Origin: Candidatus Omnitrophota bacterium
Lineage (GTDB): Bacteria > Omnitrophota > Gorgyraeia > Gygaellales > Profunditerraquicolaceae
Assembly: GCA_029571225.1 (NCBI GenBank)
Contig: JAKPTF010000009.1
Location: forward strand, 26,925-90,924
Length of the DNA stretch: 64,000 nucleotides
Direction: 5' to 3'
Position 1 is the stretch's first letter, and every line of letters starts with the position of its first letter. Below the pieces are notes generated by a model. The model had not been told where the DNA came from and ran no database searches. It worked only from the letters and a program-made list of their open reading frames with translations. Below are positions 40,888 to 50,602 of this stretch, piece by piece. Made by a program: the position numbers and the translations under genes.

Positions 40888-41592
40888 TCATTTATTGGTC
40901 CGGATGACGAGATAATCCCCGTCCTGAACGGGGTAGTCCTTCATTTCAAGCCGGACATGGTTGTTTGATTTCGCCTTCGAAAGGCTACCGTCTGCGATCA
41001 GGTCCTTAAAAGACACGACCTCCGCGCGGATAAAACCTTTCTGTATGTCCGTATGGATCGCGCCCGCGGCGTCCCAGGCGGTGGAACCCTTTTTCAGGGA
41101 CCAGGCGTGCGAATCCTTGTCTCCGGCGGTAAAAAAACTGATGTACCCGAAATGCGCATATGCCTCTGACAACAGCTTATCCTTGTTTTCCAGGTCCGCT
41201 GCCTGCGCCAGGTATACAGGCCGCATCGACAGAAGCGAATATCCAGAAACCAGCTCGCGCTCTTCCGCGGTCAGGGCCACGTCGCACACGAGCTCCTCAC
41301 GGTCGAGCTGATCCTTGAATCTTAGAAGAACCGCCCTTTCCGCGTCGAGCGGATTGCGCGACAGCCGCGTTTCGACGAATTCCATATCCGCCACCACCAG
41401 ATCCAGTTTCCTGTCAGCTGGGCATATGATGCCGTCGCATTCAAAAAGCTTGCCTTCGTCGGACACGATATCAATCTGGATATACACTTCTTTGGCGGAA
41501 TTGAACATGGCCTTCAATTGCCTGATCCTTGGATCAGGGAGATTGGCCTTGCCCTGCGTCAACGCATTGATTCCTACGATGCCTATCTTCAC
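40888..41592 (-). CDS. YchF-like protein lacking the P-loop (retains the DUF933/TGS-like C-terminal domain)
   Basis: 234 aa. MKIGIVG is followed directly by INALTQGKA, so the GxxGxGKS segment is absent. The G3 position reads DIVS, not DxxG. The C-terminus HAWSLKKGSTAWDAAGAIHTDIQKGFIRAEVVSF...KDYPVQDGDYL closely follows YchF. Confidence 0.75.
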   Translation of the reverse strand: MKIGIVGINALTQGKANLPDPRIRQLKAMFNSAKEVYIQIDIVSDEGKLFECDGIICPADRKLDLVVADMEFVETRLSRNPLDAERAVLLRFKDQLDREELVCDVALTAEERELVSGYSLLSMRPVYLAQAADLENKDKLLSEAYAHFGYISFFTAGDKDSHAWSLKKGSTAWDAAGAIHTDIQKGFIRAEVVSFKDLIADGSLSKAKSNNHVRLEMKDYPVQDGDYLVIRTNK

Positions 41593-41594
41593 GT

Positions 41595-43529
41595 TTACTC
41601 CTCTTCCTCTTTATGATGCTCCTGGAATGCCTGGATGATCGGAGCGGCGATCTTATTGGGCACGGTCTCGTAATGCGAAAACTTCATGGTATAGCTGCCC
41701 TTGCCCTGCGTCATGGACCGAAGATCGCTGGCGTAGGTGAACATCTCCGAAAGCGGCACGCTCGCTTTGAGAGCCTGCACCCTGCCCTTCTGCTCCATAC
41801 CAATGGTCCTGCCGCGGCGCGAGTTCAGGTCGCCGGATACCGCTCCCATGTATTCCTCGGGTATATAAACCTCGATCTCCATGATCGGCTCAAGCAAAAC
41901 CGGGCCCGCCGCAAGCACCGCCTTGCGCAGCGCAATGCCGCCTGCACGCTGGAAGGCCGCGTCGGACGAATCAACGTCGTGGTATGAACCGTCGAACAAT
42001 ATCGCCTGGACATCCACGACAGGGAAACCCGCGATCACGCCTTGCGCCATCGCGGCGCGGATGCCCTTTTCCACCGAAGGGATGAAATTGCGAGGGATGG
42101 CTCCTCCGACGATCTTGTCCACGAATTCAAATCCCTTGCCGTGCTCTAGCGGCCTGAGCTCAATCCAGGCGTCGCCGTACTGCCCGCGCCCTCCTGATTG
42201 GCGCTTGAATTTGCCCTGGACCTTAGCAGTCTTCGTGATGGACTCCTTATACGGGACCTTCGGTTTCCCCAGCTCCACGTCCACGTTGAACCGCTTCTTG
42301 AGCCTGCCGATCATGACATGCAGGTGCAGGTCGCCCATGCCGGAAATTATCATTTCCTTTGTTTCCGGATCGACCTTTTCGTGGAACGTCGGGTCTTCGG
42401 CGACGAGCTTTGCGAGCGCCTGAGAGATCTTTTCTTCGTCCTGGCGCGTCTTGGGCTTCACGGATGCGGACATCATGGCCTCGGGGAATTCCATGGGCTT
42501 GAACAGCACGGGATGGGCCTGTTCCGCCAGGGTATCGTTGGTCCAGGTGTTCTTAAGTTTAGGGATGGCGACGATATCCCCGGGCCCGGCGCTCTCGACC
42601 GCGCGCTGCTCCTTGCCCTGAAGCAGATAGAGATGGCCGAACCGTTCTGTATTCTTCTGCGTTACGTTATAGAAAGTCGTGTTTGCCTGGAGTTTCCCGG
42701 AAAAAACCCGGGCGATGCTTAACTGGCCGACGTACGGATCAAATATGCTTTTGAAAACAAATGCGCTGAATGGTTTGTTTTCGAAAGGTTCCACTGTGCC
42801 TTCCTCGATCAGCATATGCGGATGCTCCGCCGGAGAGGAAAGGTCCTCTTTGATCGCCTTTAGCAATTCGTCAATACCGTCGTCGGTCAGGGCCGAGCCG
42901 AATATGATAGGGAACACCTTGGCATTGTTCACCGCCTGATGAAGCCCCGCCTTGATCTCATCGATCGTGAGCTTCCCATTGGCGAGATACTTCTCAAGCA
43001 AAGAATCGTCGCTCTCGGCCACTTCTTCCATCAACGACTCAAGCGAGGTCGTATCGAGAATAACGGCGCTGCGGGAGAGTGCCGAACGTATCTCGGCGAC
43101 TATTTTATCTTTATCAATGCCTTCCTTATCCGCTTTATTGACGAAAATAAGGCGGGGCATGCCGATCTCTTCAAGCATCTGCCAGACGCGTTCGGTGCCG
43201 ACTTCGACCCCGGAGCTGGCGTCAATCACTACCACCGCGTTATCGACTGCCCGCAGGGCCGCGATCACCTCTCCGTGAAAATCGGCAAAACCGGGCGTAT
43301 CCACCATCTGTATCCTGATATCCTGGTAATCGCAAAACATGAAGCCGGCATTAATCGATGATTTGCGCTCGATCTCGTCCCAATTATAATCGCTGACGGT
43401 ATTGCCTTCCGCGGTCGTGCCTTTGCGGGTAGTTGCCTTGCAGCGAAAGAGGATCGCTTCGGTCAGGCTGGTTTTGCCTGACTGGGCGTGCCCAAGGAAA
43501 ACTATGCTCCTTTTATTGGTGGCTTCCAT
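41595..43529 (-). CDS. elongation factor G family GTPase (short paralog)
   Basis: 644 aa. G1 GHAQSGKTS, G3 DTPGFADF, G4 NKADK. Domains II-V are recognisable (RVFSGKL, GDLHLHV, GGRGQYG, PVLLEPIM). Shorter than the ~700-aa canonical EF-G. Confidence 0.85.
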   Translation of the reverse strand: MEATNKRSIVFLGHAQSGKTSLTEAILFRCKATTRKGTTAEGNTVSDYNWDEIERKSSINAGFMFCDYQDIRIQMVDTPGFADFHGEVIAALRAVDNAVVVIDASSGVEVGTERVWQMLEEIGMPRLIFVNKADKEGIDKDKIVAEIRSALSRSAVILDTTSLESLMEEVAESDDSLLEKYLANGKLTIDEIKAGLHQAVNNAKVFPIIFGSALTDDGIDELLKAIKEDLSSPAEHPHMLIEEGTVEPFENKPFSAFVFKSIFDPYVGQLSIARVFSGKLQANTTFYNVTQKNTERFGHLYLLQGKEQRAVESAGPGDIVAIPKLKNTWTNDTLAEQAHPVLFKPMEFPEAMMSASVKPKTRQDEEKISQALAKLVAEDPTFHEKVDPETKEMIISGMGDLHLHVMIGRLKKRFNVDVELGKPKVPYKESITKTAKVQGKFKRQSGGRGQYGDAWIELRPLEHGKGFEFVDKIVGGAIPRNFIPSVEKGIRAAMAQGVIAGFPVVDVQAILFDGSYHDVDSSDAAFQRAGGIALRKAVLAAGPVLLEPIMEIEVYIPEEYMGAVSGDLNSRRGRTIGMEQKGRVQALKASVPLSEMFTYASDLRSMTQGKGSYTMKFSHYETVPNKIAAPIIQAFQEHHKEEEE

Positions 43530-43610: not shown

Positions 43611-43639
43611 ATTATAAAAGACAAGCCGGGCAAGGTCAA
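43611..43639 (-). promoter_or_regulatory. sigma70-like promoter upstream of the EF-G paralog
   Basis: Minus strand reads TTGACC, 17 nt, TATAAT, about 80 nt upstream of the ATG. Confidence 0.6.
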
Positions 43640-43640
43640 G

Positions 43641-43677
43641 AAAAACATGGGGACGGCCTCTTTTCTAGAACCGTCCC
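43641..43677 (-). terminator. intrinsic terminator after kamA
   Basis: Minus strand has GGGACGG-N14-CCGTCCC followed by CATGTTTTTCTT, starting 23 nt after the kamA stop. Confidence 0.6.
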
Positions 43678-43699
43678 AATGTTTTTAGTCAGGGGCTGG

Positions 43700-44884
43700 T
43701 TATTCGAGGTAGGTAAAAACTTTATTTTCGTAATTACGCAGGACATATTTGCCCTTTGCCTGCGATAATATATAATTGGGAGCGACCGGGATCTTGCCGC
43801 CTCCGCCCGGAGCGTCGATTACATACGTCGGCACGCCGTAACCCGTAGTGTGGCCGCGCATTTTTTCCATAATATTGATGCCCACGCTGACAGGGGTGCG
43901 GAAATGCTGGGTGCCGCGTGCCGGGTCGCATTGATAAATATAATAAGGCCGGACCCTCATTTTTAGCAACTCATGCATTAGCCTGCGCATGGTCGAAGGC
44001 CGGTCATTGATGCCTTTTAAAAGGACCGTCTGGCTCCCAAGCGGGATCCCCGCGTCAACCAACATGTCGCAGGCATTGCGCGTGCGGCGCGTGATCTCCT
44101 TGGGATGGTTGAAATGAAGGCTCATCCAGATGGGCGCATGTTTCTTGAGCATCGCAACGAGCCCTTCGGTGATGCGTTGCGGCAGCGTCACGGGAACGCG
44201 GGTTCCAATCCTCAGGAACTCCAGATGGGAAATGGCGCGCAGCCTCCCCAGGAGCATGTCCAGGACGTCGTCTTCGAGCGTCAGCGGATCGCCGCCCGAT
44301 ATCAGGACATCCCTTATCTTCTTGTTCGACTGGATGTATTCGATCGCCTTGTCCCAGCGGTTGACGGAATTATCGTGTTTTTCCTCCTGCCCCACCATGC
44401 GGCGCCTCGTGCAATGGCGGCAGTACATGGCGCACGATTCGGTGGCAAGAAGCAAAACCCTGTCCGGATACCGGTGAACCAGGTGCGGAGCCGGGGAATG
44501 GCTGTCCTCCCCGCAGGGATCCGCCATCTCATAGGGGCTGACCTTGAATTCGTCGGCGGTCGGAATTGCCTGGCGCCTGATTGGGCACATCGGATCTTCG
44601 GGATCCAGCAGCGTTGCCCAGTACGGAGTAACGGCCATTGCCATGCGGCCGCGGGCGCTTTTCAACCCATCCTCTTCTGCCTGGGTCAGCGAGACGACCT
44701 GGCTGATCTGGTCGAGCTTGGTGATACGGTTCCGCATCTGCCAACGCCAGTCTTCCCAGTCCAGAGGGTTGACGTCCCTGTAAAGGCTGATCTGCTGATA
44801 ATCCCTGATGCGTTTCGCGGAACGGGCCGTTGCCAGAGATTCGCTAAGCGTCTTTTGCTGCTCGGTCGCAAGCGTATTAGCCAT
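43700..44884 (-). CDS. kamA: lysine 2,3-aminomutase (radical SAM, KamA family)
   Basis: 394 aa, collinear with Clostridium KamA. WEDWRWQMRNRI, CAMYCRHCTRRR, YIYQCD and VIDAPGGGGK. Both Asp positions that bind the lysine epsilon-amine in LAM are retained, with the same 37-residue spacing. Confidence 0.9.
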   Translation of the reverse strand: MANTLATEQQKTLSESLATARSAKRIRDYQQISLYRDVNPLDWEDWRWQMRNRITKLDQISQVVSLTQAEEDGLKSARGRMAMAVTPYWATLLDPEDPMCPIRRQAIPTADEFKVSPYEMADPCGEDSHSPAPHLVHRYPDRVLLLATESCAMYCRHCTRRRMVGQEEKHDNSVNRWDKAIEYIQSNKKIRDVLISGGDPLTLEDDVLDMLLGRLRAISHLEFLRIGTRVPVTLPQRITEGLVAMLKKHAPIWMSLHFNHPKEITRRTRNACDMLVDAGIPLGSQTVLLKGINDRPSTMRRLMHELLKMRVRPYYIYQCDPARGTQHFRTPVSVGINIMEKMRGHTTGYGVPTYVIDAPGGGGKIPVAPNYILSQAKGKYVLRNYENKVFTYLE

Positions 44885-45884
44885 GATTTATCTTCCTCCT
44901 TTGGAAGGCGCTCAACAATACAGACTCGATCAGGTCGTCGTATTGCATTCCCGCGGCATAAGCCATTTTCGGGAAGTTAGATTCCTTCGGGTCCAGGCCG
45001 GGAAGCGGATTAATCTCCAAGACATAGGGGACATTATGCGCGTCAAGCCTGATGTCCGTCCGCGATATATCATAACATCCAATGGCGCGATGCGTACGCA
45101 GCGCCGTATCCTTCACGAGCCGTTCCGTCGAACTGTCAAGGCGCGCCGGGCAATAAAAAGTCGGCGTCAACCCCTGGGCGCGGTCGCCCTGAAATTCCTT
45201 CATGCGCCAGGAATAAAAAAATTCTCCGCTGTCCCTCGCGGTCGAAAAATCTATCTCCAGCACCGGCAGGACCGTCGCCTTGCCGTTCTCGAGGATGCCG
45301 ACCGTAAGCTCCTTCCCCTCGATGAACTCTTCGACTAGGACTTCCTGCCTGTAGAGCCGGATGAGCTCCTTCACCCTTGAGCGTAATTCCTGCGGCCCTG
45401 TTATGAAGTTCTCGCGCCTGATTCCCTTCGCAGACCCTTCCAGATTCGGTTTCACTATGAGGGGAAACCGGAGCTGAGGATCTAATGCCTCGTCCCCTGT
45501 TTCAAAAACCTGGAACGCCGGGGTCGGGATATTCTCCGCTCTTAATATCCTCTTGGTCATGGCCTTGTTCAAGGCAAGAGCCAGAGCGAACGCGTTCGAT
45601 CCGGTGTACGGAATATCAAGGCACTCCAGAAGAGCCGGGACCTCTGATTCCCTGAAGCGGCTCCGGTGACCTTCGGCGATATTGAACACCATGTCAACCC
45701 TGTTCTTTGTAAAATAAGACACCAGGGCTGGCTGGTCAGCATCCACCGAATGCACGGTATGGCCGCGGCGGCCGAGCGCCGCGGCGATGGCGTCGATGGT
45801 CTTTGCCGAATCGCATTCCGAGAAATAGTCCTCGGGCTTTGTCGCGTCTTCTTTTTTCAGGTTATATGTCAGGGCCACGTTCAT
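44877..45884 (-). CDS. ATP-grasp ligase, D-Ala-D-Ala ligase-like family (paralog B)
   Basis: Start set at MNVALTYNLKK (ATGA overlap with the upstream stop). ATP-grasp pattern FPLIVKPNLEGSAKGI, VLVEEFIEGKELTV, DIRLD...PYVLEINPLPGL. Confidence 0.8.
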   Translation of the reverse strand: MNVALTYNLKKEDATKPEDYFSECDSAKTIDAIAAALGRRGHTVHSVDADQPALVSYFTKNRVDMVFNIAEGHRSRFRESEVPALLECLDIPYTGSNAFALALALNKAMTKRILRAENIPTPAFQVFETGDEALDPQLRFPLIVKPNLEGSAKGIRRENFITGPQELRSRVKELIRLYRQEVLVEEFIEGKELTVGILENGKATVLPVLEIDFSTARDSGEFFYSWRMKEFQGDRAQGLTPTFYCPARLDSSTERLVKDTALRTHRAIGCYDISRTDIRLDAHNVPYVLEINPLPGLDPKESNFPKMAYAAGMQYDDLIESVLLSAFQRRKINHG

Positions 45885-46873
45885 TTCAGGCCGTACCTTT
45901 TGATCGCGCACTCCAGGATCCGGGTGATCATCCGCGGATACGGGATGCCTTGATACCGGGAAATGACGGAAAACACGTCCTCGGTCGATAACGACGGAAG
46001 GGGGTTTATCTCCAGCACATACGGCATCCCTTTCTCGTCGACGCGAATATCAACCCTGCCGAAATCCCGGCATTCGATCGCCCTGTATGCCGCGGCGGAC
46101 ACGTCAATGATGCGTTTTAAAAGTTCGGGCTTGACCGGCGCGGGAACGATGTATTCCACCGCGTCCGGCCGGTTGATATGGCCGAACGTGTAAAATTTAT
46201 CCTTAAGGTCGAGCGCGCCGTCGATCTTGATCTGGACGACCGGCAGGACTTCGGGCTCATCCGTGCCGAGGATCGCGACGGTGAACTCCGTGCCCCTGAT
46301 AAACTCCTCGACAAGGGCCGGCTGGCGGTATTTCGTCACGATCAGCTCGACCTGCCTTTTCAGCTCAGCCGCCGTGGTAACGCGCGACGCATTTGATAAG
46401 CCTTTTGAGGACCCTTCGCAGCGAGGTTTCACAAACAAAGGGAACTTCATTGAAGACGGGATTGTGTCTATCCGGTCTGGAGATCCTATCTCTACGAATT
46501 TCGGGGTGGGGATGCCTTCGGAAACGAAGATTTTTTTAGCGATGATCTTATCCAGGGAAACCGCTAGGGTGAGAGCGTCGGATCCGACGCACGGGATGCC
46601 AGCCATCTCCAGGAGGATCGGGACCTGAGATTCGCGGTTCCTTCCGGACAGGCCCTCGGAGATATTGAAAACGATATCGACCTTCAGGTCATTGAGCCTG
46701 GATAACAGAGAGGAAACATTGCCGATCCTTTCGACCTCATAACCGCTTTGGGCAAAGGCATCGGCGATAACATCGATGGTCTCGGGGTGGTCGAATTCGG
46801 CATTCGCATCGAGCGGATCGTTCGGTTTGAACGCGTAGTCGGTCTTCAGGTCGTATGTCAGGCCAACTTTCAT
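45881..46873 (-). CDS. ATP-grasp ligase, D-Ala-D-Ala ligase-like family (paralog A)
   Basis: 330 aa. MKVGLTYDLK, FPLFVKPRCEGSSKGL, ALVEEFIRGTEFTV, DIRVD...PYVLEINPLPSL. Clear tandem paralog of the next gene. Confidence 0.8.
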   Translation of the reverse strand: MKVGLTYDLKTDYAFKPNDPLDANAEFDHPETIDVIADAFAQSGYEVERIGNVSSLLSRLNDLKVDIVFNISEGLSGRNRESQVPILLEMAGIPCVGSDALTLAVSLDKIIAKKIFVSEGIPTPKFVEIGSPDRIDTIPSSMKFPLFVKPRCEGSSKGLSNASRVTTAAELKRQVELIVTKYRQPALVEEFIRGTEFTVAILGTDEPEVLPVVQIKIDGALDLKDKFYTFGHINRPDAVEYIVPAPVKPELLKRIIDVSAAAYRAIECRDFGRVDIRVDEKGMPYVLEINPLPSLSTEDVFSVISRYQGIPYPRMITRILECAIKRYGLK

Positions 46874-46890
46874 TCTATGATACCTCGGGC

Positions 46891-46924
46891 AAAAAATAAA
46901 AGGCCCTGAACACGCCCAGAGCCT
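46891..46924 (-). terminator. terminator-like hairpin plus U tract 17 nt upstream of the ATP-grasp start codon (possible attenuator)
   Basis: Minus strand has AGGCTCTG-N8-CAGGGCCT (8 bp including one G-U) followed by TTTATTTTTT. Confidence 0.5.
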
Positions 46925-46964
46925 TCATTGCATGCCTGTTCTTCCAACGGTTATGCGTCCCTCC

Positions 46965-46978
46965 TGAAAAATTTTTCA
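46965..46978. promoter_or_regulatory. perfect 14-bp palindrome TGAAAAATTTTTCA (operator candidate)
   Basis: Self-complementary sequence read directly. It lies in the leader of the ATP-grasp/kamA operon. Confidence 0.3.
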
Positions 46979-47067
46979 TTTTTTTACAGGTACAGTATCT
47001 TTTTTATCATACCTGCGGCATTTGTCAAGCCTTTTCTCTCGTCGGAAAACGGGACTCCAGGATTATT

Positions 47068-47811
47068 TTACGCAGCAGGATTATCCAACGTTACCGCTCC
47101 CCAGGATGCCATGGTATCCTTGATGACGAAAAGCGCGCCCCGCACGCCGCGGACCGACCGCGCAAACCGCACGGCGCGCTCCAGGTCTTTTGCGCCGGCA
47201 ATGCGGTTGCCCGCTGCGGTCGCCACCGCATCCGCGAGCGCCGCGTTCCCGGCTATGATGACCGCCGCATCCGCTTTGCCGAACGACAGCGAATGGCCTA
47301 CGGTGCCGGATGACGTACAAACGCCGCACGGCATGAATTCCGGCTCAAGCCTCAATTTAAGCCGGCCGCTCAAGACCGAGGAGCCGGCAAACAGGCCGAC
47401 GGTCACCGCGGTACGGGTGTTCAGATATATGTCCCCGCCGTTCTCAATGATGATATCGCGGCAGCCCCGGCCAATCAGGTCCTCGCCCAGCCTCTGGGCG
47501 ATCGCGCCGGCGACCGCTGCCATCGGGCCCACATCCGCCTTACGGCCCGCGGCGGCCATATCCCTGACGATAGGAGCAGCGCGGCTCTCGACCGTAACAG
47601 GCTCCAGACTGTTCAGGAATCTCTCATCTCTGGCTATGTATGCCTTGATCTGGTTCCGGTATGACCGTATGCGTTCCATGCAATAGTCCCGTTCGACCGG
47701 CTGGTCCGAATAGATAAGAATATCCGTTTCCTCGATAATAACCCTTCTTTTCAGCAGCCTGCCGGTTATCCAGCTACGGTAAAACCGCCTCTGATAGCGA
47801 GGTGTCTTCAT
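47068..47811 (-). CDS. UPF0280 family protein (ApbE-like superfamily)
   Basis: 247 aa. ETDILI, GPMAAVAGAIAQ, IENGGDIY and SSGTVGHSLSFGKADA patterns. Confidence 0.7.
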   Translation of the reverse strand: MKTPRYQRRFYRSWITGRLLKRRVIIEETDILIYSDQPVERDYCMERIRSYRNQIKAYIARDERFLNSLEPVTVESRAAPIVRDMAAAGRKADVGPMAAVAGAIAQRLGEDLIGRGCRDIIIENGGDIYLNTRTAVTVGLFAGSSVLSGRLKLRLEPEFMPCGVCTSSGTVGHSLSFGKADAAVIIAGNAALADAVATAAGNRIAGAKDLERAVRFARSVRGVRGALFVIKDTMASWGAVTLDNPAA

Positions 47812-48435
47812 CTAAGCTCCTGTTTCGACGCCGCAGCCGGCAAGATCGCGTTTTAACTGCCCGATGCCTGCAAAGACGAATCCCTCGATGCCCAGCGCCC
47901 TGGCGGCGGCGACCATGTCGGGCCGATCGTCCGTATAGAACGTTTCACAGGCAGGGACACCGAGCCTGTCAAGGACAGTCCGGTAGATCCTCTCATCAGG
48001 TTTTACAAGGCCCATCTCGCATGAGGCAAAAAGATGGTGGAACCTGTCGAATACCGGAAGGCGCTCTTTCAGATAGGCGTAATGAAGCGCGTTTATATTT
48101 GAAAGCATCGCCAGTGTGTACTTCGGCCGCAGGACCGCTAAAAGATCATACACGGCGGCATTGGACTCGGTCATGTAAAAAATATTGTTCCATATCGCAA
48201 CGAACTGATCGAAGGGGATGTCGAGGTCAATACGCTGCTGCACATCCGCGAAAAAAACCTCGGGGGAAATATCGCCCTGTTCGAACGAACGGATTAGGGG
48301 GGAATTAAAAAAAAGCTCGTAGATCTGTTCGGGGGACTTGCCTGTGAGAAGCGCGATTTTGCGGCCGGCGGTCATATGGTCGAAATCAACCAGCACCTTG
48401 CCGAGGTCAAAGATAATCGCGTGAATGGCCGCCAC
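47812..48435 (-). CDS. HAD-IA family hydrolase
   Basis: 207 aa. Motif I IIFDLGKVLV, motif II LSNIN, motif III/IV TFYTDDRPD. Confidence 0.8.
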   Translation of the reverse strand: MAAIHAIIFDLGKVLVDFDHMTAGRKIALLTGKSPEQIYELFFNSPLIRSFEQGDISPEVFFADVQQRIDLDIPFDQFVAIWNNIFYMTESNAAVYDLLAVLRPKYTLAMLSNINALHYAYLKERLPVFDRFHHLFASCEMGLVKPDERIYRTVLDRLGVPACETFYTDDRPDMVAAARALGIEGFVFAGIGQLKRDLAGCGVETGA

Positions 48436-49401
48436 TTAGTTATTGCTTTCCTTGTTCTTCTTGAACAGGTCCAGGAACCGGTCTTCGTAATCCTTGTAAA
48501 CGTTCCATTTGTCCAGTTCCGTCTTCAGTTCATGCGCCCTGGAGATGTCCGTTTTGGCGCGCGAAAAAAGCTCTTCGATCTTCTGCTGGACGGATAACGG
48601 CAGTTTCGTCAACTGGCTGAGCGATTTGCGGATCTTGTCTATCTCGTCCTCGCCGATAGGGCCGGGCGCCGGGCCGAGCTTCAGGTATTCCAGGAGGTTG
48701 TTGATCTGGATCTCCAGCTGCGCCGCCTGCGCTCGCAGATCGGACAGATCCGCGGTGAGGCCCGTGATGCGACCGAGCGCCTCCAGGACCGCGCACGACG
48801 CCTTCGGATTCTCGATCTGGATCGTGTACAGCGGAATCTCTCCGAGCAGGCAGAACCCGTCGAGCCCTGCGCGTTTTGCCATGCCGAGAAACAGGCCGTT
48901 CAACCCGCTGATATGTCCGTCATTGAGCGTCTGCACGTTATATTTAACCAACTCCTTCTTGATCGTTTCCGAAGTAGCGGTAAACCAGACATTCGGCGGC
49001 TGGTTATGATCGATGGCCTGAGGCATGGCGGCAAAGCTGATGACCCGGTCGGCCTTATACCTTTTGGCGACCGTAATGATCAATCTGCAATATTCATCCG
49101 CCCTTGCAAGATCGGGCTGCGCGTCCGCGATGAAAATGATAACGTCCTGCGACCCGCCCTTGCCTTTATGGAAATAGAATCGATTGCCGGGCCATTCGGG
49201 AAGACTGATGATGCCGTCGCGGACATGGCTTTCCATCAGATAAAAAAATTCCTGCGCGGGGATGCGGGCGAACACTTCGGCCTTAAGCTTCTCCGCCAGG
49301 TAACCCGCCGCCTTGTACGCAACCTCTCCCATGCCCGGCCAGGCGACGACGAACAGAGGGTTCTTGAGTTTAGGGTTTTTGTTGAATTTTATCCGGTCCA
49401 T
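48436..49401 (-). CDS. PAC2 (proteasome assembly chaperone 2-like) family protein with coiled-coil tail
   Basis: Start set at MDRIKF (49401). The longer ORF would overlap the upstream gene. LKNPLFVVAWPGMGEVAYKAAGYL and GLNGLFLGMA patterns. Confidence 0.6.
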   Translation of the reverse strand: MDRIKFNKNPKLKNPLFVVAWPGMGEVAYKAAGYLAEKLKAEVFARIPAQEFFYLMESHVRDGIISLPEWPGNRFYFHKGKGGSQDVIIFIADAQPDLARADEYCRLIITVAKRYKADRVISFAAMPQAIDHNQPPNVWFTATSETIKKELVKYNVQTLNDGHISGLNGLFLGMAKRAGLDGFCLLGEIPLYTIQIENPKASCAVLEALGRITGLTADLSDLRAQAAQLEIQINNLLEYLKLGPAPGPIGEDEIDKIRKSLSQLTKLPLSVQQKIEELFSRAKTDISRAHELKTELDKWNVYKDYEDRFLDLFKKNKESNN

Positions 49402-49450
49402 ATATTCCTTCGTCTTATGCTGTATATTATATAGCGGATATACGTTTTGG

Positions 49451-50602
49451 TTAACTAAATTTATAATCGGCGAGGAACCGTTCCAGCACAGCGGCGCCCC
49501 TGCATAATCCGCTGATCTGTACATATTCATCGGCCATATGCGCAGTTCCCCCGCATCCGAACCCCGTCGCGACAGCGGGTACGCCTTTGTCTTGGAAGAA
49601 CGTGATCACGGTCGCGCCTTCAGAACCGGCGATGCGGGCACGCAGGCCGCAGGCCTTCATGGCTTTTGCCAGGCCGGCAACAAGGGCATGGTTCGCGGGC
49701 AGACGATATGGCTTCTGCATATCGTCGATATGCACCTTGAACGAACGGCTGTGCCGGGCAGCGATCCGTTTCAATGCGGATACGATGCACCGCGGGTCCA
49801 TGCCGGGAAGGAATCTGAAATCGAGCTCAAAAACGCATCTGCCAGCGACGACATTCACCTTGTCGCCGCCCCGGATGGTCCCGATGTTCATGGTCGGAGG
49901 GCGCAAATACCTGTCTTTCCCGGCATAGGCGCGGGACAACCGGTCCATGAAGGCCCGCATCTCCGTCAGCATGACAATCGAGCGGTCTATGGCGTTGATA
50001 CCTCGCCACGGATATGCGCCATGGGCTTTTTTACCCTCGATAGTGACGGTAACATGAATCAGCCCTTTCTGGGTGATGATGACATCGAAATCGTCCGCGT
50101 CAAGGACTACAGCCGCATCGACCTTGAGCAGGCCTGTGCGCACAAGCGGCAGAAGGCCGCATACAGAACCGCTTTCCTCGTCTGCCGTGGCAGCGAACAC
50201 AAGGTCATAATACAAAGGCACGCGGTCCTCTCGCAGGCTGTGCATCGCCTCAAGAGCAACCGCGAGATTGCCTTTGCAATCGGTCGCGCCCAAACCGTAT
50301 ATCCTGTCCCCCCGGACCTCGGCCCCGAAAGGATCATGGCGCCAACCCTGACCCGCGGGCACCGTGTCAAGATGCGGAGTGATAAGCAATGACTTCCGTC
50401 CCCGGCCTGCCGGAACGCCTTTTATGCTGGCAATGACGTTCGGGCGGCCCTTCCGGAATGAATGCATCCGCGCGGGAATATCCGCCTCTCTAAGATAATC
50501 GCGGACCCACAGCGCAATCCTCTGTTCGTTTCCCGACGGGTTCTCGGAGTTGATCCTGATCAGGGAACGAAGCGTTTTAATGAGGCGGTCTCTTCTTATC
50601 AT
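49451..50602 (-). CDS. M20 family metallopeptidase (ArgE/DapE-type deacylase)
   Basis: 383 aa. ITPHLDTVP, GATDCKG, ADEESG, and a dimerisation-domain insert. Confidence 0.85.
   Translation of the reverse strand: MIRRDRLIKTLRSLIRINSENPSGNEQRIALWVRDYLREADIPARMHSFRKGRPNVIASIKGVPAGRGRKSLLITPHLDTVPAGQGWRHDPFGAEVRGDRIYGLGATDCKGNLAVALEAMHSLREDRVPLYYDLVFAATADEESGSVCGLLPLVRTGLLKVDAAVVLDADDFDVIITQKGLIHVTVTIEGKKAHGAYPWRGINAIDRSIVMLTEMRAFMDRLSRAYAGKDRYLRPPTMNIGTIRGGDKVNVVAGRCVFELDFRFLPGMDPRCIVSALKRIAARHSRSFKVHIDDMQKPYRLPANHALVAGLAKAMKACGLRARIAGSEGATVITFFQDKGVPAVATGFGCGGTAHMADEYVQISGLCRGAAVLERFLADYKFS

Follow-up and report, generated by a model that had tools for sequence, protein, structure and literature searches.

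To our knowledge, beta-lysine has few fates in primary metabolism, namely the osmolyte acetyl-beta-lysine, the modification of elongation factor P (EF-P) and the fermentation of lysine. In the AblA/AblB system (KamA/YodP in Bacillus subtilis), which leads to N-epsilon-acetyl-beta-lysine, a KamA-type enzyme feeds beta-lysine to a small dedicated operon, and in the EpmB/EpmA system a KamA-family enzyme makes the beta-lysine that undergoes an ATP-dependent amide attachment. Here, we analysed a stretch of 64,000 nucleotides from contig JAKPTF010000009.1 of a Candidatus Omnitrophota bacterium (hereafter the window), which contains a minus-strand operon of three genes encoding, in this order, two ATP-grasp ligases with the fold of D-alanine-D-alanine ligases (Ddl), designated G1 and G2, and a KamA-type aminomutase:

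45881 to 46873, minus strand: G1, Ddl-fold ATP-grasp ligase of 330 amino acids, clade O1 (Pfam Dala_Dala_lig_C, 1e-36)
44877 to 45884, minus strand: G2, paralogous Ddl-fold ATP-grasp ligase of 335 amino acids, clade O2
43700 to 44884, minus strand: KamA-type lysine 2,3-aminomutase (LAM) of 394 amino acids

On the sequence evidence presented below, we favour, with reasonable but not high confidence, a self-contained three-enzyme pathway predicted to yield a small beta-lysine-containing peptide or conjugate. The association of kamA with the two ligase genes is not a product of chance, and their functional linkage is much more secure than the reading of the product as a small molecule. If the proposal is correct, it adds a further fate of beta-lysine, reached through stand-alone ATP-grasp ligases, and an unreported peptide or conjugate in at least 11 phyla. 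No description of such a module was found in the literature, subscription-only papers not being covered, when aminomutase or beta-lysine was combined with ATP-grasp or ddl, or for Omnitrophota.

The three genes are tightly coupled. The stop codon of G1 (TGA, 45883 to 45881) and the start codon of G2 (ATG, 45884 to 45882) form an ATGA overlap, and the stop codon of G2 (TAA, 44879 to 44877) lies beyond the ATG of kamA at 44884, resulting in an overlap of 8 nt (ATGGCTAA); an earlier note on this DNA had described the genes as chained in this way, and the coordinates bear it out. The GTG at 45911, given as the start of G2 in the list of open reading frames, corresponds to an upstream extension, homologues beginning at the ATG, and the N-terminus obtained from the latter (MNVALTYNLK) is to be compared with MKVGLTYDLK in G1. 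Equally tight coupling, from a 3-nt gap to 11-nt overlaps, was observed on other Omnitrophota contigs. The GC content of the operon (0.535-0.569) is not anomalous in a window where it ranges from 0.52 to 0.585. Proteins of an Omnitrophota metagenome-assembled genome match the aminomutase and G1 with 100% identity.

We defined the module as a lysine-type KamA and two ATP-grasp ligases of the FNxxEGxxGRxRE type, adjacent and on the same strand, as they are in the window; this N-domain motif is invariant in the ligase family and specific to it. An exhaustive, profile-free search for the ligase family returned 1,079 representatives at E < 1e-30, and the best 150 were examined for fusions: 38 are tandem fusions of two ligases and two are fused to a KamA domain. 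One sequence, P0369, is a KamA-ligase fusion of the lysine type that keeps YQCD and IDGP. In species-representative genomes, at least 594 loci match the ligase family, which takes the module well beyond one uncultured genome. The earlier note had suggested a survey of neighbourhoods with kamA and two ddl-like genes; among the best 80 loci, kamA adjoins the ligase genes in 72, and five of the eight exceptions end at contig edges. These 80 loci cover at least 11 phyla, with members of the Omnitrophota, Planctomycetota, Lentisphaerota, Desulfobacterota, Nitrospirota, Spirochaetota, Bacteroidota, Acidobacteriota, Alpha- and Gammaproteobacteria, Melainabacteria, Cyanobacteria (Dolichospermum) and Cloacimonadota. 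The Bacteroidota include the cultured Prolixibacter denitrificans, and the existence of cultured carriers or genera (e.g. P. denitrificans DSM 27267) makes the prediction directly testable.

A second type of fusion, the P0298 family (690-718 amino acids, 11 clusters), has the ATP-grasp ligase N-terminal to the KamA domain. It was considered as a lysine-type Rosetta stone and ruled out, as it has Gln in place of Asp293 (LAM numbering, see below) and different neighbours. At such loci (L086, 5959-10157; L087, 5022-9258) a GntC/VioD-like enzyme dependent on pyridoxal 5'-phosphate (PLP) and a RaSEA-like radical S-adenosylmethionine (SAM) protein precede the fusion. Judging from these sequences, the lineage probably has a pathway based on another beta-amino acid, perhaps derived from arginine; it supports a general partnership between the ligases and the KamA family, not one specific for lysine.

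The next question is whether the aminomutase acts on lysine. Collinearity with Clostridium KamA, claimed beforehand, was confirmed against the structure of the C. subterminale enzyme (2A5H), to which the homologue aligns over residues 32-394 with 479 bits. The radical-SAM cluster motif CxxxCxxC is present as CAMYCRHC (residues 151-158), aligned to Cys125/129/132 of 2A5H, and the aspartates of YQCD and IDAPGGGGK, residues 320 and 357, are indeed 37 residues apart. Arg134, Asp293 (YQCD), Asp330 (IDAPGGGGK) and Lys337 of 2A5H all have identical equivalents; we take Arg134 to bind the alpha-carboxylate of lysine, Asp293 and Asp330 its epsilon-ammonium group, and Lys337 to be the lysine that carries PLP. 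Both lysine-binding aspartates are replaced in glutamate 2,3-aminomutase. The equivalents of Arg134, Asp293 and Asp330 are invariant in 69 of 69 module KamAs (the window and 68 others, from many phyla), and the residues binding lysine, PLP and the cluster are kept in all 68 module-linked KamAs.

Among the NCBIfam models, the homologue comes nearest to the AblA-type LAM. It scores above the cutoff of the KamA family (TIGR00238, 355.2 vs 199.2) and below those of EpmB (TIGR03821, 253.5 vs 369.3) and glutamate 2,3-aminomutase (TIGR04368, 473.2 vs 650), and it is also well below the NCBIfam cutoff for arginine aminomutase. The AblA equivalog model (TIGR03820) is missed by 7 bits (518.4 vs 525.4), the match ending at profile position 360 of 417, because the C-terminus is short: the last residue of the protein corresponds to residue 367 of 2A5H, and about 50 C-terminal residues with the Zn cysteines are missing. 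The Zn site of LAM, which we understand to be formed by Cys268 and by Cys375/377/380 of the neighbouring subunit, is absent, Cys268 also being replaced by Arg; among relatives, the C-terminal extension varies from 0 to 78 residues. Phylogenetic placement had been proposed in the earlier note as a check; in a distance tree rooted on Escherichia coli EpmB, the Clostridium LAM nests beside the Omnitrophota clade. The homologue shares about 56% identity with the characterised Clostridium enzyme, but only about 31% with E. coli EpmB. Within the Omnitrophota, KamA is 70-81% identical. By its sequence, the aminomutase is thus a true lysine type, neither an EpmB nor a glutamate aminomutase.

These residues also bear on the order of the reactions. 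We considered it rather improbable that the ligases act first, G1 and G2 building a lysine peptide whose N-terminal lysine would be the substrate of the KamA homologue, then a lysyl-peptide 2,3-aminomutase. The gene order of the Omnitrophota (ligase, ligase, aminomutase) is what such a route might lead one to expect, and the missing C-terminal Zn and oligomerisation region implies a quaternary structure, and perhaps a substrate access, different from those of LAM. However, the invariance of Arg134 and of both epsilon-amine aspartates fits free lysine, and KamA comes first in most other phyla.

G1 and G2, which had been noted as paralogous Ddl-family partners, share 39% identity. Among solved structures, Ddl enzymes come closest to them, with scores of only about 100 bits and 22-30% identity, while members of the family score 200-400 bits among themselves. 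The AlphaFold2 model of G1 (mean predicted local distance difference test, pLDDT, 88.4) superposes over its full length on Ddl structures with template modelling (TM) scores of 0.77-0.84; all its top fold matches in the PDB are Ddl, and uncertainty is confined to the omega-loop region (residues 219-237). Residues were compared with the E. coli DdlB sequence, in which the numbering of 16 known residues was checked. The equivalents of Lys97, Lys144, Glu180, Glu187, Arg255, Asp257, Glu270 and Asn272, which we take to act in ATP and Mg binding and in the transition state, are conserved in G1, in G2 and in clades O1, O2, A and B. The substrate site of Ddl, presumably made of the Glu15-Ser150-Tyr216 triad, His63, Ser281 and Leu282, is changed: His63 is replaced by Glu and Glu68 by Arg in both ligases, Tyr216 by Ile in G1 and Glu in G2, Leu282 by Val in G1 and Asn in G2, and Ser281 by Asp in G1 only; Ser150 is retained, as is an acidic residue beside position 15. 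Because the catalytic residues are kept and those of the substrate site are not, G1 and G2 are read, from sequence and model, as active ATP-grasp amide ligases that are not D-Ala-D-Ala ligases. They share with Ddl and VanA-type enzymes the three-domain fold and the ATP/Mg catalytic residues, and differ from them at the substrate positions and in the family-specific N-domain motif.

A trivial explanation would be that G1 and G2 are ordinary peptidoglycan D-Ala-D-Ala ligases and kamA a chance neighbour. It is the one suggested by the source annotation, frequently 'D-alanine-D-alanine ligase', and the 64-kb window holds no other ddl. However, both proteins fall under every NCBIfam Ddl cutoff (182.7 bits for G1 and 196.2 for G2 with the best model, NF002378, against 243) and far under those of the equivalog models, Tyr216, His63 and Leu282 are lost in both, the family forms a distinct clade, and its linkage to kamA extends across the phyla listed above and into gene fusions. 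In addition, Prolixibacter and Dolichospermum, which carry the module, would be expected to have a canonical Ddl as well. The explanation is thus effectively excluded, and the possibility raised in the earlier note that these might prove to be common Ddl genes found without kamA in relatives did not hold. Surveys of peptidoglycan synthesis in the Omnitrophota, the Planctomycetota and relatives can be led astray by this label, which many of the module genes currently bear.

The organisation of the module varies between phyla. The order G1-G2-KamA is found in the window and in at least 19 loci of the Omnitrophota type, which have two A-like ligases and lack both a GNAT gene and a divergent B ligase. 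Outside this type, 29 other loci have the order KamA-A-B, where ligase B has diverged to about 26% identity and is without the N-domain motif, its catalytic residues being intact. One Omnitrophota genome (L013) has the general module type, with an A-B fusion. A GNAT of about 165 amino acids follows the module in 26 non-Omnitrophota loci, and about 10 loci carry a GNAT-HDAC fusion. In P. denitrificans DSM 27267, a KamA-A-B-GNAT cluster lies at about 436.9-440.7 kb of NZ_PYGC01000003.1. The prediction that the partners of the aminomutase differ from those of the acetyltransferase route holds for the window, whose operon has no GNAT; it does not hold as a general statement, a small GNAT being usual in the module of other phyla. 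This is also a point of likeness with AblA/AblB. The differences are that AblAB has no ATP-grasp ligase where the module has two, that the ~165-amino-acid GNAT gives no match to the AblB model at E <= 1e-5 (its best match is RimI, below threshold), and that the window aminomutase lacks the C-terminal region and does not reach the AblA cutoff. Apart from GNAT and GNAT-HDAC genes, the flanks of the module are not conserved outside the Omnitrophota.

Three observations on these loci may be added. The GNAT-HDAC fusions are 577-853 amino acids long, occur in several phyla and have no NCBIfam match (L022, 257-2044; L019, L050, L076, L008, L013, L042, L068). In an alphaproteobacterial locus (L051, 8770-14730), four ATP-grasp genes of the ligase family follow kamA, which makes this an expanded module. 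Finally, six metagenome-assembled genomes labelled 'uncultured Planctomycetales' (L018, L023, L024, L025, L039, L057) have Omnitrophota-type ligases, 60-64% identical to G1, in the order G1-G2-KamA where the contig reaches (L018, L039 and L057 end at contig edges), and all six carry the Omnitrophota-specific leader described below, which suggests taxonomic mislabelling or mis-binning.

In the pathway that we propose, the KamA-type radical-SAM/PLP enzyme would turn free L-lysine into beta-lysine, a first step inferred from the LAM active site, which is conserved in full. Each Ddl-fold ligase would then form one amide bond via an acyl-phosphate, with conversion of ATP to ADP and Pi; one bond would probably be made at the carboxylate of beta-lysine and the other at one of its amino groups, G1 and G2 probably acting as a heteromeric pair. 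The expected product is a small cytoplasmic compound or conjugate, di- or tripeptide-like, that contains beta-lysine. The data show the structure of the genes, the conservation of residues and of the leader, the fold, the synteny and the fusions; the order of the substrates, the number and type of the bonds, the nature of the product and the regulatory signal are deduced from them. In other phyla, the GNAT and the HDAC-type deacetylase that accompany the module suggest a cationic product, of which a free amine is acetylated and de-acetylated, as in an osmolyte or a protected intermediate.

Parallels exist in other pathways. In the pyrrolysine pathway (PylB/PylC/PylD), a radical-SAM rearrangement of lysine is followed by amide ligation by a Ddl-related ATP-grasp enzyme, the acceptor being a second lysine, at its epsilon-amine. 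The likeness is one of logic and not of membership: PylB is not a PLP-dependent aminomutase of the KamA family, PylC is not among the PDB sequence matches of G1 or G2, and the module has two ligases and no PylD-like dehydrogenase. MysC/MysD of mycosporine-like amino acids, RizA/RizB, and Ngg of the dipeptide osmolyte N-acetylglutaminylglutamine amide (NAGGN) likewise use two ATP-grasp ligations, or an ATP-grasp enzyme with a GNAT, for a small N-acylated peptide-like metabolite, with neither a nonribosomal peptide synthetase nor the ribosome. We know of none among them whose substrate is a beta-amino acid produced by an aminomutase. G1 and G2 also match the L-amino-acid ligase BL00235 in the PDB, with E values of about 1e-5 to 1e-6.

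Several points weigh against a pathway to a small beta-lysine metabolite. The co-substrate or co-substrates cannot be read from the sequence, and no transporter, peptidase or other gene points to the fate of the product. The order with the aminomutase first is deduced only from the conservation of Arg134, Asp293 and Asp330. The product of the Omnitrophota may differ from that of other phyla, because the GNAT and the divergent B ligase are missing there. Finally, the high conservation of the operon within the Omnitrophota, already seen for KamA, would also fit a housekeeping modification of a macromolecule.

This last point leads to an alternative that we regard as unlikely but worth weighing, in which the ligases beta-lysylate a macromolecule, either a protein (e.g. 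a translation factor, which would acquire a beta-lysyl-lysine-type modification independently of EpmA) or a peptidoglycan precursor or cell-wall polymer, and no free metabolite is made. RimK, LysX and D-aspartate ligase are established examples of ATP-grasp enzymes that modify proteins or the cell wall, the sub-threshold best match of the GNAT is RimI, and in the Omnitrophota the operon lies, in conserved synteny, directly upstream of genes for a paralogue of elongation factor G (EF-G) and for a protein resembling the C-terminal part of YchF. However, the EF-G gene has its own putative promoter beyond the terminator of the operon, the module flanks are not conserved in other phyla, and the nearest fold relatives of the ligases are small-molecule dipeptide ligases. 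Furthermore, neither efp nor epmA, mur or carrier-protein genes were detected in the window or at the 85 loci examined. The absence of efp separates the module from EpmB/EpmA too, as do the low identity to EpmB and the nature of the ligases, which are ATP-grasp enzymes and not paralogues of lysyl-tRNA synthetase. A widespread EpmA-independent beta-lysylation by ATP-grasp enzymes, for example of a translation factor, placed in the Omnitrophota under a new class of cis-regulatory leader, appears quite improbable.

The ligases might also alternate or iterate to make oligo- or poly-beta-lysine or a mixed polyamide, serving as a nitrogen store or as a polycation. Two ligases predicted to be active and often fused, a substrate with both a carboxylate and a distal amine, and relatives whose acetylation and deacetylation genes would suit a polycation are all compatible with this, as is the analogy with cyanophycin and with oligomerising ligases of the RizB type. 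We nevertheless judge it very unlikely: unlike cyanophycin synthetase, the ligases have no primer-binding or Mur-ligase-like domain, their 330-335 amino acids are the size of simple dipeptide ligases, and no conserved depolymerase is encoded nearby. A small peptide or conjugate with beta-lysine remains our preferred product.

The expression of the operon in the Omnitrophota appears to involve a specific leader, with the following elements in the window:

47001 to 47028, minus strand: candidate sigma-70 promoter, TTGACA (47028 to 47023), 16-nt spacer, TAAAAA (47006 to 47001), from sequence and alignment
46892 to 46994, minus strand: conserved operon-specific leader of about 105 nt, from alignment and covariance model
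46891 to 46926, minus strand: terminator-like stem-loop with U-run, candidate attenuator, ending 17 nt before the ATG of G1

The promoter arrangement, TTGACA with an extended -10 element (T)GTGATAAAAAAT, aligns across Omnitrophota loci. In the window, the leader comprises GGAGG (46963 to 46959), 11 nt, TTGGAAGAAC from 46947 and the terminator hairpin; in the alignment of 24 Omnitrophota-type loci, GGAGG is followed after 11-13 nt by the consensus TTG[G/A]AAAA and by the hairpin with its U-run. The same elements, GGAGG, TTGGAAAAA and the sequence-conserved terminator stem, can be seen for instance at L001 (7895-7994) and L084 (9737-9841), among others. The stem is unusually conserved in sequence (AAGGGCTC...GAGCCCTT) and is the sole consensus structure of the leader, with six pairs, one of which shows compensatory changes in seven sequences; RNAalifold gave no conserved leader structure besides it. 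A covariance model (R1) matched each Omnitrophota locus once, giving 23 hits in 994 kb with both strands searched; every hit directly precedes G1, four come from outside the training set, and the loci of other phyla gave none. No riboswitch or known leader of Rfam was detected at the gathering threshold over the window or at E <= 10 over the leader.

At many loci, the distance from the U-run to the ATG of G1 is just 10-25 nt, which leaves no room for a promoter; G1 would therefore have to be transcribed by read-through, and the hairpin is a candidate attenuator. The earlier note had reported a leader hairpin upstream of the operon: the hairpin is there (46926 to 46891), and its description can be refined to that of the terminator of a conserved, operon-specific leader with its own candidate promoter, likely an attenuator. 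In the Omnitrophota, expression would then depend on terminator read-through in this leader, presumably in response to some regulatory signal, and the leader is a candidate for a new attenuator or riboregulator, i.e. for a new regulatory RNA element. GGAGG-N11-13-TTG resembles a mini-ORF (short open reading frame), often starting with MEK, MKK or MKN. A leader peptide acting as a Lys-codon attenuator was considered and rejected, the length (1-27 codons) and frame of the mini-ORF not being conserved and indels shifting the frame; that of the window (MEEQ...) contains no Lys codon.

On the other side of the operon, the two features that follow kamA are:

43641 to 43686, minus strand: intrinsic terminator 3' of kamA (A-tract, GC-rich stem, U-tract), from folding energy
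43611 to 43639, minus strand: promoter-like site of the downstream EF-G gene, TTGACC-17-TATAAT, after the operon terminator

The terminator, anticipated by the earlier note, folds with -23.6 kcal/mol (z = -3.44), and one of 200 shuffled sequences was equally stable. Upstream of the operon (47068-50602, minus strand) are genes for an M20 deacylase of the ArgE/DapE family, a PAC2-family protein, a HAD phosphatase and an ApbE-like/UPF0280 protein, a block that is syntenic in about 9-11 Omnitrophota loci and missing from L003. Directly downstream, with its own putative promoter, is the short EF-G paralogue (644 amino acids, 41595-43529, minus strand), followed by a 234-amino-acid protein (40888-41592, minus strand) of which only residues 138-232 match the C-terminal/TGS region of YchF. 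These two genes, then purH, folC, mnmE and folE, are syntenic with the operon on many Omnitrophota contigs (L001, L003).

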